Shown in pieces: positions 51,944 to 64,000 of a stretch of DNA of 64,000 bases (position 1 is its first letter; every line of letters starts with the position of its first letter). Location: contig CBDBHH010000005.1 in the NCBI GenBank assembly GCA_965205535.1, forward strand, positions 266,712 to 330,711, in the 5' to 3' direction. The position numbers were made by a program, and so were the translations under genes. The notes below the pieces were generated by a model, which did no database searches, had not been told where the DNA came from, and saw only the letters and a program-made list of their open reading frames with translations. The DNA comes from Alphaproteobacteria bacterium. GTDB taxonomy: Bacteria; Pseudomonadota; Alphaproteobacteria; UBA6615.

Positions 51944-52351
51944 TCAGGCGCCGCTGGCCGAACAAGCCAATTCAAGCCGCGTCTCTTCGGCCAGCAGAAG
52001 CGCCCACGTGTCGGCCGGCATGAAACGCGGTGCCAGATACTTGTAAAGGTCGCGCAAAAGGGGCGTCACGGCATAGGGGTCAGAAATATTGCCCGGCAGG
52101 CGGTCCCATGATTCCGCGATCTCGTCCCAGGGGTTCAGGCGGGCGAACATCTCATCGCGAATATCGCGGATTGCGCTGCGGTGGAATTCAAAATTTTCGA
52201 ACAGGGAAACGATATTCGAAAGGCGCGCATCGATCTCGGCCAGGCTAAGTCCCAACGCGTGAACGGGGACTGAAATAAGCCGGGCGACCGGATCTACATC
52301 GCTGAGAATGCTCGCATGGTGGGCAAAGTCGCGGCGCACTATTTTTCGCAA
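51944..52351 (-). CDS. hypothetical protein (possible gene remnant) abutting the island's left direct repeat
   Basis: 135 aa ORF whose first codons overlap repeat copy 1; no motif recognised. Confidence 0.3.
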   Translation of the reverse strand: MRKIVRRDFAHHASILSDVDPVARLISVPVHALGLSLAEIDARLSNIVSLFENFEFHRSAIRDIRDEMFARLNPWDEIAESWDRLPGNISDPYAVTPLLRDLYKYLAPRFMPADTWALLLAEETRLELACSASGA

Positions 52352-52912
52352 TCAGTAGTTAGGGGCTTCAGTCCAGTGCCATGGGCAGGACCGGCTGTTC
52401 CGGCCGCCCCGCCACCGCGCCGGGAACCGTGAACCGCCTGCCGCCGAATATATCGGCGACGGTCAGCATCTGCTGCATTCGGGTTCCCCAACTTCACACC
52501 CCGCGCCTTGGCGGCCTGCAAGGCTGCCTTCGTGCGGATGGAAATGGATTCCCGCTCATGCTCGGCCACAGCGGCCAGAATGTGCATGGTCAGGCGATTT
52601 GCCTCCGGCATATCGACGGCCACAAAGTCCGCACCGCTCTCCATCAGATTTGAAATGAAGGCGACACTCCGTGCCAACCTGTCCAGTCTGGCAATGAGCA
52701 AGGGTGCCTTCTTCTGGCGGCAAAGGGTTAGGGCTTCAGCTTAGGGCAGGGCGGTCATTCTTCCTGCCGCTCTCGATCTCCGTGAATTCAACCAGCAATT
52801 CACCACGACCGGCAATGAAGCGGGTCACTGCTTCGCGCTGCGCTTCCAGGCCAAGGCCGGAACGGCCTTGCCTATCAGTCGATACCCGGAAATAGCCCAC
52901 AAAATCAGTCAT
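52339..52912 (-). pseudogene. serine recombinase (resolvase/invertase family) with a +1 frameshift near 52731-52733; its 3' end lies inside the direct repeat
   Basis: N-terminal fragment MTDFVGYFRVSTDRQGRSGLGLEAQREAV... (catalytic Ser context) ends at NDRPALS*. Removing one A from cctaagct restores ...NDRPALAEALTLCRQKKAPLLIARLDRLARSVAFISNLMESGADFVAVDM...KARGVKLGNPN. Confidence 0.6.
52347..52473. repeat. 127-bp direct repeat, copy 1 (left boundary of the island)
   Basis: Identical to 62675..62801 except for 2 mismatches (G/A at 52370 and C/T at 52427 in copy-1 coordinates). Confidence 0.8.
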
Positions 52913-53010
52913 GTGAGACAGTCTAGCGGCCTTCCGTATAAAAATCAAACGTGGGTTTGATTTTTATACAACTTAAACCAATGCCCTTTAAAAGGGCGCA
53001 AACAGCCCCA

Positions 53011-55323
53011 CTATCCCTTCTTTGTGAAAGCGATAGTTCTGGTGCAATGATTGACGAGTTCCTGATCGTTGATGATCTCTATAGCATATGCGGGGTTTGT
53101 TTCATGGTGAAACTTGTTGGCATAGTCGAGCAGTTTACGGAGCTCGTCAGCATCCGCCTGATTCAAAATCGGTGTTCCTGCTGTCAATGCCTGCACACAT
53201 TCACTGTGGAATGGCCCCAACATTTTACCCGGCGGAAAATGGGCGGGGTAGGCAACACGCAAAAAGGCTTCCAGAACATAGCGCAGGGCAGTAGCAACCT
53301 CTCGCGCTTTGCTTTGATCAGACTGGTTAAGATACTGCTGAATCAGGGCATGTCGCTTATCATGCTCCGTGATGCAATCCTGCGTTACGTCCCAAGTATC
53401 AATAGTTGATGATTGACCGCTTCGGATGATGTGCAGCGCAGCGCGGGCTGTCTTATCAGCGCCTTCCCAAACCTGACAAAGGAACGGTTTTGAGTGTGAA
53501 AGAAGGATAACCTGCTGAACACGCTGTGCCAGCCCCCGAACCTCTTGAATCGTTGCGAGTGATCTATGCTCATCCAGACTGGTCATCGGATCATCAATGA
53601 CAATGACCTTTTGTGCTAGCCCTGCATCCTGATCAAGAGACGCAAGAAAGAAAGCAAGAGCCAGGGTGTTTCTATCTCCGGCGCTCATCGTATTCCTGAA
53701 TGAAGGGCCATTATTACTGGCAAGCGGCACAGAAACATTGTTGATCAACACATTGTATGTGCATGATGATCCGCCTCTGTTATTTTGAGCGGAAACGCTA
53801 TCCAGCCGGAAACCTGCATTGAACTTACCCAGGTAATCGTTGATCGCCTGCTGATATGTGGCGAAGATACTGGCGCAATATTGTTCAAGGTCAGTCTTTG
53901 CCTTGTCACGCTTCTCCTCTGTTTTCTTCTTTTCCCCTTTCTCTGCCAGATAAGCATCGCAATGCTTTGCCACATCTGATTCAAATCGTGCCTTGATCGT
54001 TTTCAATCTGTTCAAGTCATCCGTTAGCGTTGCCACATTAGCTGTGGCCGCTTTTTCTTTCACGGCCTGGATCGGATCATTGCATTCGATCAGGCTTGAA
54101 GAGAGCCCTGTAATGGCCTCACGATGCCCGTCATAGGATTTTACAGCCTCAAGAATATCTTCGGAAAGAGTCATCTTCTCAAGAGGTGAGGCCAGCTTTG
54201 CTCTCAAGATTTCAAGGATAGGCTCACGCGCTGCTTTCCAGGCGCGGGCAATCTCTGCTGTATCGACCTGAATAGCAAGAATATCCGTGAATTTCCGCCA
54301 GAATTCACCGTTCTGAATTGCTTCACTGACAGCACGTTCAAAGGCAGATTGGATTTCTCCCTTGTGAGCATCAGCAATCGACTTTCCAATGTCAGTGATA
54401 GCCTGCTTCAGGGAAGTGTAAACATCACTGAAATAGGTCTCATAGTGAGCAATAATATCTGAATCTTTCAGCTCTTGGTCACAGAACGGGCATCGCTGTT
54501 CATCATCAGAAGAGTCGGCGATCTTCTGCATCCCCTCACCAATCCAGGACTCCGCACCTTTACCCAATTTTTCAAGATGCTGCTTCACTCTGGTTGTTGC
54601 TTCGACCTGCAATCCAGGCAAGTCACGTTGAAGGATTGCTTCAATCGCAGCGGTATCGAATTCAGGCAGTGATAGGGGCTTGAACTCGCCTTGCTTATTG
54701 ATTGGATCAGCGTCTTTCGCAGCGGCCAGATTTCGTTCAGCCTGCTGAATCTCATCATCTATATCTATTTTGGGATTCTTCTGCAACGCGCAGAAGTCCT
54801 CAACATTAATTGTGCCTCGCGCCTTGACAGGAATAGCCGCTTCCTTGGTTTTCAGGGTGCGATTATGCTCTTCGATTTTGCTGATATGCCCTTTCAGGGA
54901 TTCATTCAGCGCAATCCCCTGCGCCCCTAGAATAAGCTCATGCAGCTTCTGTTTATGGCCAGAATCAACTACAACTCCCGAACAAACATTCTCGACCACA
55001 AAGTGATCGTCGAAAATAGCGATTTCCGGGAGATGGGTCTGCCATGCACCATTTTGAAAAATGAACGATTGCTGGCCATTTGCCTGCACAACGATATGTG
55101 GATCGGCATTTGCATGAGGGGCGGTGCCGGATTGCAAGCGTTTCCGTTCTTCGATCAATGTTGGATTATTGGTGCTCAAAGAGCGTAGCAAATTGGCAAG
55201 GGTTGTCTTCCCTCGTCCATTCTCGGCATATATCAGCGTCATGCCGGAAAATCTCGTTTGCTGCCCTGGGGAGACGCTATCGAATTGCCCAACATTTCTG
55301 ATCAGTTGAATCTGCTCAATCAT
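53011..55323 (-). CDS. AAA_13-family ABC-type ATPase with coiled-coil/CxxC insertion and a C-terminal about 130-aa domain (RloC/PrrC-like putative anticodon nuclease)
   Basis: Walker A YAENGRGKTTL, central CPFCDQ in a predicted coiled coil (zinc-hook-like), ABC signature MSAGDRNTLALAF, Walker B VIVIDDPMTSLD, H-loop LLSHS. Confidence 0.65.
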   Translation of the reverse strand: MIEQIQLIRNVGQFDSVSPGQQTRFSGMTLIYAENGRGKTTLANLLRSLSTNNPTLIEERKRLQSGTAPHANADPHIVVQANGQQSFIFQNGAWQTHLPEIAIFDDHFVVENVCSGVVVDSGHKQKLHELILGAQGIALNESLKGHISKIEEHNRTLKTKEAAIPVKARGTINVEDFCALQKNPKIDIDDEIQQAERNLAAAKDADPINKQGEFKPLSLPEFDTAAIEAILQRDLPGLQVEATTRVKQHLEKLGKGAESWIGEGMQKIADSSDDEQRCPFCDQELKDSDIIAHYETYFSDVYTSLKQAITDIGKSIADAHKGEIQSAFERAVSEAIQNGEFWRKFTDILAIQVDTAEIARAWKAAREPILEILRAKLASPLEKMTLSEDILEAVKSYDGHREAITGLSSSLIECNDPIQAVKEKAATANVATLTDDLNRLKTIKARFESDVAKHCDAYLAEKGEKKKTEEKRDKAKTDLEQYCASIFATYQQAINDYLGKFNAGFRLDSVSAQNNRGGSSCTYNVLINNVSVPLASNNGPSFRNTMSAGDRNTLALAFFLASLDQDAGLAQKVIVIDDPMTSLDEHRSLATIQEVRGLAQRVQQVILLSHSKPFLCQVWEGADKTARAALHIIRSGQSSTIDTWDVTQDCITEHDKRHALIQQYLNQSDQSKAREVATALRYVLEAFLRVAYPAHFPPGKMLGPFHSECVQALTAGTPILNQADADELRKLLDYANKFHHETNPAYAIEIINDQELVNHCTRTIAFTKKG

Positions 55324-56525
55324 CCGGCCACCTCATTTTTCTTCAAACAAGCTCCGCCTGGATCATAGACGTATCCTGAAATTGTGCCGTCCTTGATGCG
55401 CTCGACGGCTTCCTTGATGACAAAAAGCGGGACAAGGAACCATTCACGCGGGATCACTGGCCGTCCAAACCTGTCCTTGATCTCAACCTCAAGGCGGGCA
55501 GGCTCGAAAATGCGGTGAATGAGGTTTTCCAGCTTGGTGCGGTTGATGTTGTAAAGCTCGTAGGTCGCCACGATCTCCACATTCGCCATGAGGAATGTTG
55601 GCTGAAGGTGCGCCCCTGCAATCCGCTTCTCAACGCTCATATTGGTGACGCCAATCTTGTGAACCAGCTCCCGGTTTTCTTCGACAAGCGGGTGTTCTGA
55701 CTTGCTGCGCAGCACATAAATGATGCCACTTGCTTCATCCCCGTCGATCGTCTGATCAGAAAATAGCGGGCCTGCGGTTGGCTCTGTGATCCTACGGCCT
55801 GCTTCGTCCTTGTTCAGGGCTCGCTGTAGCGAGCGCATCAGCATGTTGCTCTTGGTGCCGTTGTCAAAAATCACGCGAAGGCGGGCGTCTGTGCGCCCCT
55901 GATCGGTGATTGTCGTTTCGCCTTTCTCGGCCACATATGCCTTCTGGCCTCCGACAATGAAGAACCGGCCTTTCTCGATCTCGGCCTTCATCTCGAAGGG
56001 ACGTGTCTCACGCAAGCCAGAATTCAGCTCTGCCTGCACCTGCTCAAACAGGGGCTTGAAGGTCTCAAAATCCTCGCAGCGGGTGCGACTGGCCACTTCA
56101 TCAGCAGCGGCTCTTTTCTCGGCGGTCGATCGGACGTGCTTCAGCTCGGTGATCGGCGGCGCATCGAGCTCGACGCCAAGCTCGGCCAGCAGCGCGTCAT
56201 CATCCAGCTCGGCTGGGTCTGCATCTGCGGTGATTGCAGCCATGTCACCAAGCAAGCCTTGATGATCCATTGGCTCGACCAATTCCCGGCAATCCTTCAG
56301 CTTGCGGATACGATCCAACCGAACGGCATAGAGCCGTTCAAAAATATCCCGGTCTTCACCATGCAGGGGAGGGCGGCCATGCTCTTCAGCAAAGCGTTGC
56401 ACTTCCTCAAAGCCTGCAATGACACGCTGTTCGCGGGGGGTGTATGTTGCAGCCTTCTTGGTCTGCACCTCGACGCCAAGCTCGGCCAGCAGCGCGTCAT
56501 CATCTTGTGTGAATTCCTTAGCCAT
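55320..56525 (-). CDS. T5orf172/GIY-YIG-like nuclease-domain protein with duplicated N-terminal DDDALLAELGVE motif
   Basis: GIIYVLRS ... HKIGVTNMSVEKRIAGA matches the T5orf172/MUG113 pattern (YV...KIG.T.....R). A 37-bp perfect DNA repeat (56168-56203 and 56469-56505) encodes the duplicated peptide; overlaps the helicase gene by 8 nt. Confidence 0.55.
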   Translation of the reverse strand: MAKEFTQDDDALLAELGVEVQTKKAATYTPREQRVIAGFEEVQRFAEEHGRPPLHGEDRDIFERLYAVRLDRIRKLKDCRELVEPMDHQGLLGDMAAITADADPAELDDDALLAELGVELDAPPITELKHVRSTAEKRAAADEVASRTRCEDFETFKPLFEQVQAELNSGLRETRPFEMKAEIEKGRFFIVGGQKAYVAEKGETTITDQGRTDARLRVIFDNGTKSNMLMRSLQRALNKDEAGRRITEPTAGPLFSDQTIDGDEASGIIYVLRSKSEHPLVEENRELVHKIGVTNMSVEKRIAGAHLQPTFLMANVEIVATYELYNINRTKLENLIHRIFEPARLEVEIKDRFGRPVIPREWFLVPLFVIKEAVERIKDGTISGYVYDPGGACLKKNEVAG

Positions 56526-58575
56526 TGGCGGCCTCCTGCTTCATTCGCGCAAGATAGGCAACGCCTTCTGCCATTTTCTTTTCCCAGGCATCAGACGATG
56601 TGAGGGACGGCAACCGGCCACGATCCTGCTTGAATTTCAGGGCGCGTTGCGCAAGGTCTCGCGCCTCTTCAGGGGTGAGTTTGATCTTCTTGGCTGAAAT
56701 GATCGCCGCAATCCTCTTCAGGCTCTCTTCGCTCATGGTCTTTGCCAGGATCGCGTATGCCTCACCGAATGGATTGATCCGGTCGATCAAGTCAATGTCC
56801 AGTTCCCGCACGTCCATTGCGAATTTCCGCACCCCGTCGATCAGGGCGGTATTGCCGCCGGGATTGTCATCATCATCGCCGCCGGACAGGGCGATTTCCT
56901 TTGCCTTCTGTGTCAGGTTAAGGGCGGCAATCGCATGTTGCCGCACGGCTTCCTGATCCTCTGCATCCAGCTCCGGGAATTTGTCTCCGACGATCTTGCC
57001 CATGCGCACCTGTGTCAGCTCTTCTGGCACAAGCTCTTCATCAAACAGGCCGCGCTCGATCGCGGTCTTGTCTTGCACAAAGGCGGTGATCACTTCGTTC
57101 AAATCCTCACGGCAAATCCGTTCGGCTTCCTTGCTCTTCGGCTCAGCAAGTCCCTTGATTTCGATCTGAAAGCTGCCCTGTTCCTCATTGAAGCCGATAT
57201 TCGCCTTGTTCGGATCATAGCCGCCTTCGCCATAATCAAAGCCCTCTACAGGGCCGCTATTGGCGTTCTTGGGCGTGAAATTGAAGCGGGGCGCTAGCAC
57301 CTGCTCCATCAACAGGCTGGCGGCAATGGCCTTCAGCGTGTCATTGATGGCTTCGGTCACTGCCTCTTCAGACGCATCCGGCGCGGCAATCAGGTTTGTG
57401 AAGCGGGCGCGTGATTTGCCCTTCGCATCACGGGTTGCCCGTCCAATGATCTGCACGATCTCGGTGAGACTGGCACGATAACCAACAGTCAGGGCGTGTT
57501 CGCACCAAATCCAGTCAAAGCCTTCCTTGGCCATTCCCAGGGCAATGATGATGTCCACATGATCCCGGTTGTCCTTGTGCGCCGGGTTTTTCAGCGCAGC
57601 GGAAACACGGTCACGCTTGGCGGGTTCATCATCCACCAGGTCAGCGATTTTCAGCACACGGCCTTCAGATGTTTTGACAAGCTGGAAACCTGTTTGTGGA
57701 TCAGGCCCTTGCCATTCACCTAACTCTTCCATGATGTGCTCGACTTCGCGGTGCTTGTCCTTGGTGCTCTCACGGGAATTGACGTTTGGGATATGCAGGA
57801 TCGTCTTCTCGTTCGGATCGAGCACCTTCAGGATGTCATCGGCATAGGAGCCGGAATAGAAGAAATAGCCGATGTCGAGCGTCTTCAGGTATTGGTAGCC
57901 GTTCAACTGCTCATAGTAGGTGTAGGTGACGCTATCGAATTTCGCTTCATCCTCCGGCGACAGGACGGCTTCTGCATCGCCCCGGAAATACGATCCCGTC
58001 ATGGCGACAAGATGCACCTTGTCGCGGGAAATGAAGTCTCCCAGGTGCTGCCCCAGCTTGTTGTCCGGGTTGGCGGAAACATGGTGGAATTCGTCAACCG
58101 CAATCAGCCGGTTGTCGAAGGCTTCCACGCCGAATTTGTCCACGGCAAAGCGGAACGTGGCATGGGTGCAGACAAGCACCTGATCGTCACTGTCCAGGAA
58201 GGCACCAACTGAATTGACCTTGCCGCCGTCCGTGCCGGGGGCGTTGCACAGATTCCATTTTGGCTGCACTGTCCAGTCAGCCCAAAAGCCGAATTTTGAC
58301 AGCGGCTCATCATTGAAGCTGGAGCCGATAGACTTCTCCGGCACCACGACGATTGCTTGCTTCAGCCCCTGATTTTGCAGCTTGTCGAGCGCAATGAACA
58401 TCAGCGCACGGCTTTTCCCGGATGCAGGCGGCGACTTGATCAGAAGATATTGCTCGCCCCGTTTCTCAAAGGCGCGTTCCTGCATTGTCCGCATTCCAAG
58501 CTCGTTGGACTTGGTTGAATTGCCGGTCTGGGCGTAGGTCACGGAAACGGAGGGGACGGATTTCTGAACGGTCAT
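56518..58575 (-). CDS. DEAD/DEAH-box (SF2) helicase with a C-terminal about 250-aa extension
   Basis: Walker A LLIKSPPASGKS, DEAH-like VDEFHH, motif VI QIIGRATRD. Confidence 0.75.
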   Translation of the reverse strand: MTVQKSVPSVSVTYAQTGNSTKSNELGMRTMQERAFEKRGEQYLLIKSPPASGKSRALMFIALDKLQNQGLKQAIVVVPEKSIGSSFNDEPLSKFGFWADWTVQPKWNLCNAPGTDGGKVNSVGAFLDSDDQVLVCTHATFRFAVDKFGVEAFDNRLIAVDEFHHVSANPDNKLGQHLGDFISRDKVHLVAMTGSYFRGDAEAVLSPEDEAKFDSVTYTYYEQLNGYQYLKTLDIGYFFYSGSYADDILKVLDPNEKTILHIPNVNSRESTKDKHREVEHIMEELGEWQGPDPQTGFQLVKTSEGRVLKIADLVDDEPAKRDRVSAALKNPAHKDNRDHVDIIIALGMAKEGFDWIWCEHALTVGYRASLTEIVQIIGRATRDAKGKSRARFTNLIAAPDASEEAVTEAINDTLKAIAASLLMEQVLAPRFNFTPKNANSGPVEGFDYGEGGYDPNKANIGFNEEQGSFQIEIKGLAEPKSKEAERICREDLNEVITAFVQDKTAIERGLFDEELVPEELTQVRMGKIVGDKFPELDAEDQEAVRQHAIAALNLTQKAKEIALSGGDDDDNPGGNTALIDGVRKFAMDVRELDIDLIDRINPFGEAYAILAKTMSEESLKRIAAIISAKKIKLTPEEARDLAQRALKFKQDRGRLPSLTSSDAWEKKMAEGVAYLARMKQEAANG

Positions 58576-58578
58576 GGT

Positions 58579-61350
58579 CTATGCTTTTCTCTTTTGTCTG
58601 GTTGTTTTGGCCTCTGCGGTCATTTTGGTGTAAAGCTCGAACAGCTTTTCCAGCCGTTCGGTGTCATTGCGAAATCGTCTGCCGATATAGATGCGTTCAA
58701 GCACTTCGTCGTTGCGCTCATGCGCAGCGCGCAGGTTTTCGGGCATGGCGTCGGGTTTGTAGAGGTCCGCGATGGTGGCGGGGAAATGCGCCTCACGGGC
58801 CAAGAGGATGTCCTCTGCGCAGCGGGTCAGATCGGCGCGGTTTTTCTCGGTCAGTCTGGGGACGGGAAAGGTGTTCCAGCCGAGGGTGTTGGAATAGCGA
58901 TATCGGGTTTCCAACTTGCCACAGACCGTGGCGATCCAGACCAGATGAATGCGCGATGCGATCAGCGCCATGTTCCACAGTGGCGCGTCGTAGAGGGCGA
59001 AGGCGAGGTTTGAGACAATGGTCCCTCTTTCAGAATACCCACACGGCAAGAACTGACGTGTTTCAGAAGAAACACTCGGCACAATCATAACGGTTTCCGA
59101 GCCGCTCTGCCGCAGTTCTCCAAACTTGTGAGGTCGTTTTGCTGCATCTCTTGTTGCTTGCTTGGTACTGGCCAGACGCATTTGCTTCACAGCTTCAATT
59201 CTAGAAGCCAATTGAGGGGATTGCCCAACCCATTCGGCATCATCATCACCAATCCACAGACAGAAGCGTTCATTGCCTCTGATAAACTCCGATGATCCAT
59301 ATATTTTACGAACGATCTTCTTATACTGTTCATCAGTAAGTGCCAGCGCTGTGATCTCAGCCGGCTCAAGAAGGAGATTTCCTCCATCTGTGGGCTGATT
59401 GCCTTTTGTCATTTCAGAAATTATCGAAATTGGCTTCGAACACTTTAGGACTTCAACATTCGGCGCGCCCACCAAATAGGCGTTGATGTTCTCGACCTCT
59501 TTCATCACCGCCTCATTTTCGACATTCAGGCTATAGAGCCTGCGCGTCTGGTTCGTCATGTTCGACACCGCAATAATCGCCACGGTGACGCCCGCATTGT
59601 GGCTGGCAAGGTTGGCCCATTTAAACGATGTATGGGCAAAGCTGATATGGTGGCCGGTGGCAAAGATCGCGGGCCAGAGGATCGGCACCTGCTGTCCCTG
59701 ACAGATCGAATTGGTGGACACAAAGGCCGCGCTTGAATTGGTGTGCAGCCCAAAATCAGCAGCCTTCATGAACCAGCCCGCGACATAATCCAGTGTCTTC
59801 CAGTTCTTGACCCGCCCATCAAAGATCGCCTTCAGGTCTTCCTTCTGTTCCGTGCTTTGCCATTGGCTGCCAAGATACGGTGGATTACCGCAAATATAGG
59901 TCTCACCCCCTTCATTCTCAAAGTCGATCTCGGCTTGATCAACAGGTGTCATGAAAAGATCATCGCCATGCACCTTCACACCCGTTCCCGTGGGTGGGCA
60001 GATGCTCAACCAATCTACCCGCAAGGCATTACCACAGGTGATCCAGTTCATCGCATCCAGTGGCAAGAATTCGGCCAAGGCTTCCTTCTGGCCGCGATAG
60101 GTCACGTCACACTGATACTCGGCAATAATCAAAGCCAGCCGGGCAATTTCAGCGGGGAAGTCGCGCAGATCAATTCCCCGAAAATTAGTCAGTGGAATCT
60201 CGGTGTGCCGGTCGCCTTCACCGCGCCTTTTGTTGATTTCGGCCTCGATCTCCCGCATTTCCTTGTAGGCAATGACAAGGAAATTTCCTGATCCGCAGGC
60301 GGGATCAAATACCCTGATCTTGGCCATGCGGTTGCGCAGGTTCAGCAGCTTGCGGAGATTATCTTCTGCCTCTTCCAGCTTCTCGCGCAGGTCATCAAGA
60401 AACAGGGGATTGAGCACCTTCAGAATGTTCGGAACGCTCGTGTAGTGCATCCCCAAAGCCCCGCGCTCATCCTCATCGGCCACGGCCTGGATCATCGAGC
60501 CAAAAATATCGGGGTTGATTTTTGTCCAGTCCAGATTGCCGATATGCAGCAGGTAGGATCAGGCAATCTTGCTGAAGCGCGGCACGTCTGTTCCGTCTGA
60601 AAACAGGCCGCCATTCACATAGGGGAAGTCCTTTGCCCAACGAGCAATTCCGGCGGTGTCAAAGTCTTCAGCCCGCGTGTTCATCGAGCGGAAAATCTCG
60701 CTGATCACTTCATGGGTGTTCGAGCTATCCGGGGCGCTCATCTTCTCGATGGTGCATGTGAACAGGTCGGCCTTGCCGAAAATGTCGGTGTCTTCGGCAA
60801 AGAAACAGAAAATCAGCCGCGCCATGAAGTGGTTCATGTCGTGGCGGCGTTCTGCCTGCCCCCATTCGGGATTGTCTTTCAGCAGCTCCACATAGAGCCG
60901 GTTCAGGTGTCCGGTTGCCTTGATGTCGAAGGCATTGTCGCGGATTTGCTTGACGGTCGAGATTCCGGCCAGGGGCAGGAAAAAACCAAAGTGATCGGGG
61001 AAGTCGGGAAAATCACAGACAATGACTTCACCGCTATTCAGGTCTTCAGCCGAAAAATCGCTGCCGTCCGTTGCCAGCACAAATTTGGCCTTGGCCTTTG
61101 TGGTGGCGGGGCTTGCCTTCAGCTCGGCAAGGGTCTCGGCAACCTTGCCAGCAGGCGCGGCCTTGATATGGATATTGTTGGTCTGCAACACGCCTCCCAC
61201 ATCGGAGCGGTTGGACGTGCCTTTGCGCAGGCGCTTCAGGGTCGTCGGCTTGTTGCCGAATGCCTGAAGGAAGGCAAAGGCGAATTCTTTCGGCGCGAAT
61301 GGCTCGGCGGCAAGATTTGAGATTGCTTCTTCGATCTCGACGGCGTTCAT
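58579..61350 (-). pseudogene. MmeI-family type IIG restriction-modification enzyme (N-terminal endonuclease, then gamma-class N6-adenine MTase, then TRD) interrupted by an in-frame TGA at 60559..60561
   Basis: ORF 61350..60559 carries the MmeI-like nuclease/helical region (RLIFCFFAEDTDIFGK, FPYVNGGLF) and ends at ...PRFSKIA*. The same frame continues as SYLLHIGNLDWTKINPDIFGSMIQAV- into ORF 60495..58579, which carries MTase motifs I (FDPACGSGNFL) and IV (NPPY). Confidence 0.75.
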
Positions 61351-62495: not shown

Positions 62496-62674
62496 TATGC
62501 AGCCTCGGCGCTTTCCAGTGGTTTTTCACAGTCGCCGCAAAGCAATCTTGCGGATGGTTTTGCCCAGGCATTGAGGCCGCAACCGGCGCACTGAAACTTG
62601 ATCCGGCCCTTCGGCTTCACCGGGGCAGGGGTGGTCTCGCCTTCGGCTTCGCCCTGATCGGCGTTTTTATTATT

Positions 62675-62801
62675 CGCAATCAGTAGTTAGGGGCTTCAAT
62701 CCAGTGCCATGGGCAGGACCGGCTGTTCCGGCCGCCCCGCCACCGCGCCGGGAATCGTGAACCGCCTGCCGCCGAATATATCGGCGACGGTCAGCATCTG
62801 C
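62675..62801. repeat. 127-bp direct repeat, copy 2 (right boundary of the island)
   Basis: See copy 1. Confidence 0.8.
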
Positions 62802-62960
62802 ATCCGCGCATATTGCACGCCGCCCACATCGAGGTCTCCCGCCGCCGCCATCTCGCGCCGGAAGTTGGCCGCCTTCCGCGCCCCGAGCTCCTCCATCACG
62901 ATCAGCCCGGCCATGGGTGCGTCCTCACGTTCCAGCACCCCGCGCAGGTCCCGCACCACG

Positions 62961-64000
62961 CCGATGATCATCACCGCCGGCCAGCAGGAGACGGGCCACG
63001 GCCTGACCGAGCCGCTGCTCTATGACCCGCTCGCCCCCATCGCAACACCGGTGGTGAAGTGGGCGACGGAGGTGACCCGGCTGGAAGATTTGCCGCGCAT
63101 CATGCGACGTGCCGGCAAGGTGGCGATGACCGCCCCGACGGGGCCGGTGTTCATCTCGCTGCCCGGTGACGTGCTGAACGACCGCAAGGGCATCGATCTG
63201 GGATCGCGCACCCGCGTCGACACCGCCATGCGACCGTCCGATGCGGGTCTGGAAGCGCTGGCCGACCGTCTGCTCGCCGCGAAACGACCCGCGATCCTGG
63301 CCGGCAACGAGGTGGTGACGTCCGACGCATTGGCAGAGGTTGCGCGGTTTGCGGAAGTCCTGGGCGCGCCAGCGTTTCAGCAAACCACGGCCTATGGTTC
63401 GTTTTTCCCGTCCGAACATCCGGCCTTCATGGGCGCCCTGTCGCGAAACCAGAAGGAGGTTCGCGGGATTCTCGAAGACTATGACCTGCTGGTCGTGGTC
63501 GGGGCGGATGTCTTGCGCATGTCGGTGATGAGCGAGACCGAACCTCTGCCCGACGGCATGCCGATCGTCCAGATCGGCCTGTTCGATTGGGATATGGGCA
63601 AGAATTATCCCGCCGACACGGCCGTGCGCGGCGACGTGCGCGAGACCCTCGCAGTGCTGAACCCGGTGATCGAGGGGCGGACCGACCATGCGGACACGGC
63701 CAAAGCCCGCCTCGCGGCGGTGGCCGACAGCAACTGGTCGGCGAAGCGCGCGCGACGCGCCGTCGAGCTGGCCGCTGATGCCGAGGTAACGCCGATCCGG
63801 TCGGACTGGTTGATGATGACCATCGCCGACACGCTTCCCGACGGTGCGATCACGGTCAACGAAGGCCTGACCACGACCTGGAACCTGCTCCAGTATCTGC
63901 CGTTGCGCGATCGCTACGACTTCCATTCCTTCGCCAGCGGCGGCATCGGCTGGGCCCTGCCCGCGGCCGTGGGCGTACAGATCGCCCAGCCCGACCGCCC
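62961..64000 (+). pseudogene. thiamine-diphosphate-dependent enzyme of the benzoylformate decarboxylase / acetolactate synthase family, 5'-truncated (N-terminal Pyr domain absent), running off the window end
   Basis: In-frame translation from 62961 gives PMIITAGQQETGHGLTEPLLYDPL...VKWATEVTRLEDLP...GPVFISLPGDVL ... GGIGWALPAAVGVQIAQPDR, matching BFD-like central and ThDP-binding domains. None of the three plus frames upstream encodes the expected N-terminal about 170 aa. Confidence 0.6.

Follow-up and report, generated by a model that had tools for sequence, protein, structure and literature searches.

The stretch of DNA analysed here, called the window in the following, comprises 64,000 nucleotides of contig CBDBHH010000005.1 from an alphaproteobacterium (assembly GCA_965205535.1). 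On its minus strand lies a reading frame of 923 codons (61350..58579) which encodes a protein of the MmeI family and which, in single-frame translation, contains only one internal stop. This stop, a TGA at codon 264, splits the gene into two fragments. The gene is part of a defence operon together with the genes of a Fic protein, a DExH helicase, a T5orf172 protein of the GIY-YIG superfamily and an AAA_13 ATPase (Table 1).

The interrupted gene and the lost codon

Around the stop the minus strand reads CGC TTC AGC AAG ATT GCC TGA TCC TAC CTG CTG CAT, that is R F S K I A, stop, S Y L L H, and neither a second stop nor a frameshift was found in the 659 codons downstream. The upstream piece of 263 amino acids (aa) matches the Pfam profiles MmeI_N (E 3.5e-34) and MmeI_hel (E 4.3e-26). 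The downstream piece of 659 aa, which is in the same frame, matches MmeI_Mtase (E 1.6e-119), MmeI_TRD (E 4e-83) and MmeI_C (E 8.9e-17), and these matches span the full profiles (positions 1–258 of 259 in MmeI_Mtase, 2–207 of 207 in MmeI_TRD, and likewise MmeI_C). The methyltransferase (MTase) belongs to the gamma class of N6-adenine MTases, with GMHYTS as motif X, DPACGSG as motif I and NPPY as motif IV. In addition, a single PADLOC type IIG profile is covered at positions 14–274 by the upstream piece and at positions 279–910 by the downstream piece, and the HMMER alignment to MmeI (PDB 5HR4) is unbroken across the stop once an arginine is placed there. Such agreement is far beyond chance, and the split MmeI-family gene is real and not a chance pattern of open reading frames (ORFs). 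Thus Pfam, PADLOC and the alignment to 5HR4 bear out the first-pass annotation of the window in so far as it described an MmeI-family gene with homology on both sides of one in-frame TGA.

The same annotation had located the stop at the junction of the nuclease and the MTase module, and this location has to be corrected. As calculated from the HMMER alignment, the stop aligns to R276 of MmeI. The domains of MmeI are the nuclease (residues 1–155), a helical spacer (156–300), the MTase (301–620), the target recognition domain (TRD, 621–825) and a C-terminal bundle (826–919) (Callahan et al. 2016, PMC4833311). The stop therefore falls within the helical spacer, and 24 residues separate it from the MTase domain.

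The codon which was replaced can be identified by comparison with the homologs. When the 120 best homologs were examined, 93 of them had the motif flanking the stop, and arginine is found at the column of the stop in 92 of these and serine in one. At the nucleotide level we compared 80 loci from species-representative genomes (L001–L080). All 56 motif matches in these loci have a CGN codon at the column (CGC 25, CGG 13, CGT 12, CGA 6). The metagenome contig CEQU01108261.1 (L081), which is 92% identical to the window at the nucleotide level over the operon, has CGA; it was the only contig returned by an exact-pattern scan of metagenome contigs in which the variable base was set to N. A second contig of the same element, L085, which is likewise a 92%-identical relative, has CGA, too. 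Because the relatives have CGN and the nearest ones CGA, the lesion is most parsimoniously explained by one C>T transition which turned CGA into TGA. The residue is conserved from the YeeA-like family described below to MmeI, in which the column is likewise occupied by arginine (R276). The alignment with MmeI that had been proposed in order to identify the lost residue as Trp, Arg or Cys consequently yields Arg.

The YeeA/DnmA-type family and the operon partners

The relationship to MmeI does not extend over the whole protein. The phmmer alignment to 5HR4 (E 2.2e-141) covers residues 88–915 and begins at MmeI residue 108, leaving the first 87 residues unaligned, and the N-terminal 159 aa alone gave no PDB match by sequence. 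By fold the N-terminal domain is weakly similar to restriction endonucleases and it has no PD-ExK triad. The residues D70, E80 and K82, which are essential for cleavage in MmeI (PMC4833311), correspond by spacing to D50, H61 and K63. In 121 family sequences these columns contain Asp in 120, His in all 121 and Lys in 81 (Ala 31, Leu 5), i.e., the lysine is replaced by Ala or Leu in 36 of the 121 sequences.

A second set of MmeI homologs without PD-ExK motif and with divergent first 100 residues was described by Morgan et al. (2009, NAR 37:5208, PMC2731913). The genes of this set are "invariably" flanked by genes of a DEAD helicase (YeeB) and a GIY-YIG protein (YeeC), and the proteins have no endonuclease activity when expressed alone, whereas the MmeI-type enzymes are encoded by stand-alone genes without consistently linked partners (PMC2731913). 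YeeA is DnmA, the N6-methyladenine (m6A) methyltransferase for the motif GACGAG in Bacillus subtilis (PMC9973331). On the basis of its architecture and of the published description of this second set, the gene in the window is assigned to the YeeA/DnmA subgroup of the MmeI homologs. The former MmeI-family call thus stands at the superfamily level, but not in the sense of a self-sufficient enzyme with an N-terminal endonuclease. The idea of a "once self-sufficient restriction enzyme" conflicts with the residues D50/H61/K63, with the unaligned first 87 residues and with the YeeA–YeeB–YeeC operon containing a helicase and a GIY-YIG-like partner. Several full-length homologs are named "lactate dehydrogenase" in the databases, which looks like a propagated misannotation. 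NCBIfam has no model for the N-terminal fragment, the helicase or the T5orf172 protein.

The genes of the operon are closely packed. The TGA stop of the Fic gene overlaps the ATG of the YeeA-like gene as ATGA, and the helicase gene starts 3 nt past the stop codon of the YeeA-like gene. For the helicase partner PGAP gives the name "pseudomurein-binding repeat-containing protein", which likewise looks like a propagated misannotation. The T5orf172 protein matches the Pfam profiles MUG113 (E 4.5e-16) and T5orf172 (E 2.3e-12), its homolog in Roseomonas mucosa is annotated as "GIY-YIG nuclease family protein" by PGAP, and it is presumed to be the nuclease partner. The T5orf172 gene contains a perfect 36-nt direct repeat (56169–56204 and 56469–56504), also found in L081, which encodes the sequence DDALLAELGVE twice in the N-terminal region of the protein (aa ~8–19 and ~108–119) and may represent a repeated docking motif. 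The AAA_13 ATPase has a homolog in the same position in one of the 80 loci (L079, 51% identity), and the homology to L085 stops at position 55314, just before the AAA_13 gene. The AAA_13 gene is an accessory gene outside the conserved trio.

Table 1. Features of the island carrying the interrupted gene (positions refer to the window)
Feature	Position	Strand	Evidence or remark
134-nt direct repeat, left copy	52340..52473		Island boundary
Small serine recombinase (resolvase) remnant	52474..52948	minus	Pfam Resolvase on both pieces
AAA_13 ATPase, 770 aa	53011..55323	minus	PADLOC candidate PDC-S06 (E 9.6e-77); overlaps T5orf172 stop
YeeC-like T5orf172/MUG113 protein (GIY-YIG superfamily), 401 aa, intact	55320..56525	minus	Pfam; GIIYVL...KIGVT motifs
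YeeB-like superfamily 2 (SF2) DExH helicase, 685 aa, intact	56518..58575	minus	Pfam DEAD, ResIII; motifs GKS, DEFH, QIIGRATR
Downstream fragment of YeeA-like gene, 659 codons + TAG	58579..60558	minus	Last 24 spacer residues, MTase, TRD, C-terminal helical domain
ATG of Met286 (MIQAV), candidate internal start	60493..60495	minus	First in-frame ATG after the stop; ORF 58579..60495
Premature TGA, codon 264	60559..60561	minus	Sequence and translation; near-invariant Arg replaced
Upstream fragment of YeeA-like gene, 263 codons	60562..61350	minus	YeeA-type N-terminal domain and most of helical spacer
Fic/DOC family protein (SoFic-like), 361 aa	61347..62432	minus	Pfam, PADLOC; 96% aa identity in L081
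134-nt direct repeat, right copy	62668..62801		Island boundary

The association of the three core genes is conserved. A helicase gene is found downstream of the YeeA-like gene in 73 of the 80 loci (alignments of at least 90% of the query, 68–89% identity) and a T5orf172 gene in 72. The loci span Alpha- and Gammaproteobacteria, Verrucomicrobia, Acidobacteria, Cyanobacteria, Nitrospirales and others. Since the trio keeps 50–89% aa identity to the window across such distant phyla, very wide horizontal transfer of a strongly constrained YeeA-like/helicase/T5orf172 module is implied. Between the YeeA-like gene and the helicase gene, 54 of 75 loci have a variable cargo slot of 0.4–7 kb. The cargo comprises Schlafen-AlbA2/HATPase_c_4 (11 ORFs), RhuM, YhcG/DUF1016, PDDEXK_4, Fic and HEPN genes and in addition CcdA, YafQ, RelB, HipA and PIN toxin–antitoxin genes, YobI ATPase and E2/ThiF, an assortment resembling that embedded in Type I restriction–modification (RM) loci. 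In the window the slot is empty; instead the Fic gene upstream and the AAA_13/PDC-S06 gene downstream are joined to the module by overlapping stops and starts.

The entire defence operon is contained in a block of ~10.3 kb (~52.4 to 62.7 kb) with a GC content of 50–57%, compared with 62–65% elsewhere in the window. The two flanking direct repeats are 98% identical and have a spacing of 10328. The operon sits on a horizontally acquired low-GC island. When the repeats were joined in silico, no ORF was restored and no obvious target gene appeared. The resolvase gene at the left boundary (YFRVSTDRQ ... LIARLDRLARS) is frameshifted by a 1-nt insertion, the extra A in CCCTAAGCTGAAGCC, and its 3′ end is apparently cut off at the direct repeat. 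Scans of the window for tRNA genes and with Rfam found nothing. A plasmid search with 24 kb of the window gave only weak pcaF matches, and therefore the replicon is not a known plasmid. At the right end of the window a TPP-dependent enzyme is encoded on the plus strand (62691–63998, TPP_enzyme_M at aa 188–322), which is apparently the real gene there. Next to the direct repeat this enzyme either lacks its N-terminal domain or has it in another frame. On the minus strand an ORF of 333 aa rich in Arg, Gly and His (62925–63926) is probably spurious.

Age of the lesion and alternative explanations

The ratio of nonsynonymous to synonymous substitution rates (dN/dS) was computed by region for the window versus L081. 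It is 0.063 for the 263 codons before the stop; the 66 codons after the stop have 0 nonsynonymous changes, and the ratio is 0.12 for the MTase domain and 0.11 for the C-terminal domain. The neighbouring Fic and helicase genes have values of 0.13 and 0.09. Thus the YeeA-like gene does not show decay on either side of the stop, and the lesion is therefore either recent or an artefact.

The TRD differs from this pattern. Its aa identity to L081 is 61% with saturated dS, compared with 98–100% in the N-terminal part. The mosaic region corresponds to positions 58563–59576 of the window and 4828–6357 of L081 and comprises the TRD and the C-terminal region. In addition, L081 and L085 have a gene of a 183-aa HEPN protein between methylase and helicase, and the window has none. 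This arrangement suggests a recombinational swap of TRD and cargo, and the sequence specificity in the window probably differs from that of L081.

An artefact would mean that the true genome has CGA and that the gene is intact. The gene is a single base away from being intact, and L081, the nearest relative, reads CGA. A second single-nucleotide lesion, the extra A of the resolvase gene, is located 8 kb away in the same island, and the near-identical contigs L081 and L085 are one indel apart in the YeeA-like gene, so that single-base differences do arise between assemblies. On the other hand a substitution is not a typical assembly error, and by a coarse check the other 50 kb of the window consist of long uninterrupted ORFs with a high GC content at the third codon position and without widespread frameshifts. 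The identical 263-aa product is found on one database contig of 3.6 Mb with NCBI and ENA labels, which is probably the same assembly and not an independent confirmation. We regard an error in sequencing or assembly as unlikely, though with a chance that has to be kept in mind.

UGA is the leakiest of the bacterial stop codons, and a trace of full-length protein could be made by read-through. A programmed event, be it selenocysteine insertion, UGA read-through, an alternative genetic code or switching at a phase-variable site, is nevertheless very improbable. The homologs have Arg and never Cys at the stop column, and the nearest relatives L081 and L085 have a sense codon. The predicted folding of the 96 nt which surround and follow the UGA is no more stable than that of shuffled sequences (z -0.72); without a hairpin similar to a selenocysteine insertion sequence (SECIS) element, selenocysteine and a structured read-through signal are ruled out. 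TGA terminates 7 of 17 other ORFs checked in the window, namely the Fic gene, with its ATGA overlap, and six others. An alternative code is thereby ruled out, and the standard genetic code applies. Tandem Repeats Finder detected neither tandem nor simple repeats over a distance of about 750 nt from the stop, and the lesion is a base substitution, which rules out phase variation by simple sequence repeats. The first-pass annotation had offered a phase-variable or recoded site as options, and neither agrees with these results.

It had also pointed to the internal ATG at 60495, from which the methylase could be expressed alone. The position of this ATG was correctly recognized. Met286 aligns to about L298 of MmeI and is located ~3 residues ahead of the boundary of the MTase domain (residue 301), so a product starting there is structurally conceivable. 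With 638 aa it would retain the motifs X, I and IV, the TRD and the C-terminal domain intact and might still methylate the genome as a modification-only remnant. Minimal gamma-class MTases such as M.TaqI lack nuclease and spacer (PMC4833311), and DnmA of B. subtilis functions as an orphan methylase (PMC9973331). Expression from this codon is, however, unsupported by its surroundings. Met286 is near-invariant across the family, the ATG is 63 nt past the stop, and the 20 nt upstream of it (CCCCGATATTTTTGGCTCG) contain no purine-rich Shine–Dalgarno sequence. Of the four starts in the operon which are preceded by another gene, three have such a sequence: GAGGGG for the YeeA-like gene, AGGAGG for the T5orf172 gene and GAGGTG for the AAA_13 gene. 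Methylase-only expression is thus possible in principle, and we consider it improbable.

The two fragments could also be thought of as a natural two-subunit form in which the N-terminal part and the MTase part are separate proteins. Many database proteins are indeed N-terminal fragments of 254–461 aa, several of them on Mb-scale contigs, and one of 265 aa on a 2.9-Mb contig ends two codons later than the stop in the window. The latter is followed by unrelated genes and is therefore a deletion remnant. The fragments end at scattered positions, many of them in frameshift tails or at the ends of contigs. In the window the second half has neither a start codon nor a Shine–Dalgarno sequence at the split, all 79 species-representative loci which include the N-terminal part have a single ORF, and no recurrent conserved split at this codon with start and ribosome-binding site for the second half was found in other lineages. 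The scattered ends, the deletion remnant and the 79 single ORFs rule out a natural split-gene variant, to which we assign next to no probability.

Individual broken copies do occur. L085 and L081 were obtained in different projects and share 99.989% identity over 9392 nt; their sole difference is a 1-nt indel (~11200 in L085; GCGCGG versus GGCGG) which frameshifts the YeeA-like gene of L085 at about codon 402. A plasmid copy in Roseomonas mucosa is frameshifted after the NPPF motif, with intact helicase and GIY-YIG genes, and a plasmid copy in Pseudosulfitobacter (P. pseudonitzschiae) ends after residue 662 beside an IS21. In the sub-lineage formed by the window (nonsense codon), L085 (1-nt frameshift) and L081 (intact), helicase and nuclease genes are intact throughout. 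Because two of the three members have independent single-nucleotide knock-outs confined to the YeeA-like gene, it is imaginable that loss-of-function alleles are recurrently selected or are cycling in marine populations as a reversible single-base on/off state. The cause could lie in a cost of the intact system due to one-strand methylation, or in a block to useful DNA uptake. We regard this proposal as doubtful.

Consequences of the lesion and comparison with known systems

We suggest that the TGA is an ordinary recent C>T knock-out of the YeeA/DnmA-type specificity and methylation subunit in a three-gene, Type-I-like defence module, and we put the probability of this explanation at about 0.7. 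The module would consist of the MmeI-like methyltransferase with its TRD, the DExH helicase and the T5orf172/GIY-YIG nuclease, with the Fic and AAA_13 proteins as accessories. One C>T change would have converted the CGA codon of Arg264 in the helical spacer into TGA, so that translation presumably ends after 263 residues and no full-length protein is made. From the architecture and the literature, the full-length subunit is expected to direct methylation and, together with the helicase and the GIY-YIG partner, restriction. If both recognition and host protection depend on the YeeA-like subunit, the entire system would fall silent with its loss, harmlessly and without autoimmunity. In B. subtilis the deletion of dnmA is viable with yeeB and yeeC present (PMC9973331). 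The helicase start, placed directly behind the normal stop, appears to have a weak ribosome-binding site, and the 2 kb of untranslated mRNA probably lower the expression of the downstream helicase and nuclease genes by polarity. The lesion is likely to be recent and a single base change would revert it.

Several points weigh against this explanation. A base-calling or assembly error is possible, the lesion being known from the assembled sequence. That restriction depends on the YeeA-like subunit and that downstream genes suffer from polarity are conclusions drawn from architecture and literature. Disruption of the gene is not the norm, as the 79 loci mentioned above are all intact from start to stop. 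Furthermore, the function of an intact YeeABC-type system is only partly established: dnmA–yeeB–yeeC of B. subtilis gave no RM, phage or defence phenotype (PMC9973331), and yeeAB of Vibrio crassostreae confers resistance to a phage subclade (Piel et al. 2021, 10.1101/2021.05.05.442762).

The explanation put forward in the first-pass annotation, that the cell has tamed a toxic RM enzyme in this way, fits poorly with a knock-out of this subunit. The broken subunit presumably provides both recognition and protection, so its loss would disarm the system and would not leave behind a harmless methylase. The gene should be annotated as a pseudogenised YeeA/DnmA-type specificity/methylase subunit of a helicase plus GIY-YIG module, neither as a type IIG restriction enzyme nor as a "lactate dehydrogenase". 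The strain is probably without this defence and without its m6A mark. A nonsense codon in itself is nothing new and a known kind of feature. Its one-base repair would yield a ready test system for a widespread and extraordinarily conserved family.

A YeeABC-type system would be expected to place m6A at a non-palindromic motif and to need yeeA and yeeB for phage defence. The window shares with YeeA(DnmA)–YeeB–YeeC a defence-island operon in which the gene of an MmeI-like protein precedes those of a DEAD/DExH helicase and a T5orf172/GIY-YIG protein. In both cases the MmeI-like protein combines spacer, gamma-class N6-adenine MTase, TRD and C-terminal domain, and its first ~100 residues contain no PD-ExK triad. 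Unlike these systems, the gene in the window has a nonsense codon, and Fic and AAA_13 genes are joined to the operon by overlapping stops and starts. DnmA of B. subtilis is the subject of Nye 2020 and Fernandez 2023.

MmeI-type enzymes cleave 20/18 nt from their site and methylate one strand. MmeI itself (type IIL/IIG, PDB 5HR4, Callahan 2016) has the same domain order as the protein in the window from residue 88 onward. It works alone with a catalytic D70/E80/K82 nuclease, whereas the protein in the window has a non-conserved lysine at the corresponding position and dedicated helicase and nuclease partners. Disrupted genes are known from this family, too, and Morgan et al. (2009) found and repaired three of them (PMC2731913). 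These had, like the gene in the window, single lesions in non-degenerate members, and the repair was predictable from family conservation; they encode, however, stand-alone PD-ExK enzymes and not a multi-subunit system of the YeeA type. In comparison with the Type I RM systems (HsdM/HsdS/HsdR), TRD and methylase form one fusion protein in the window, the place of the PD-ExK nuclease domain of HsdR is taken by a separate GIY-YIG-like protein, and only one strand is presumed to be methylated.

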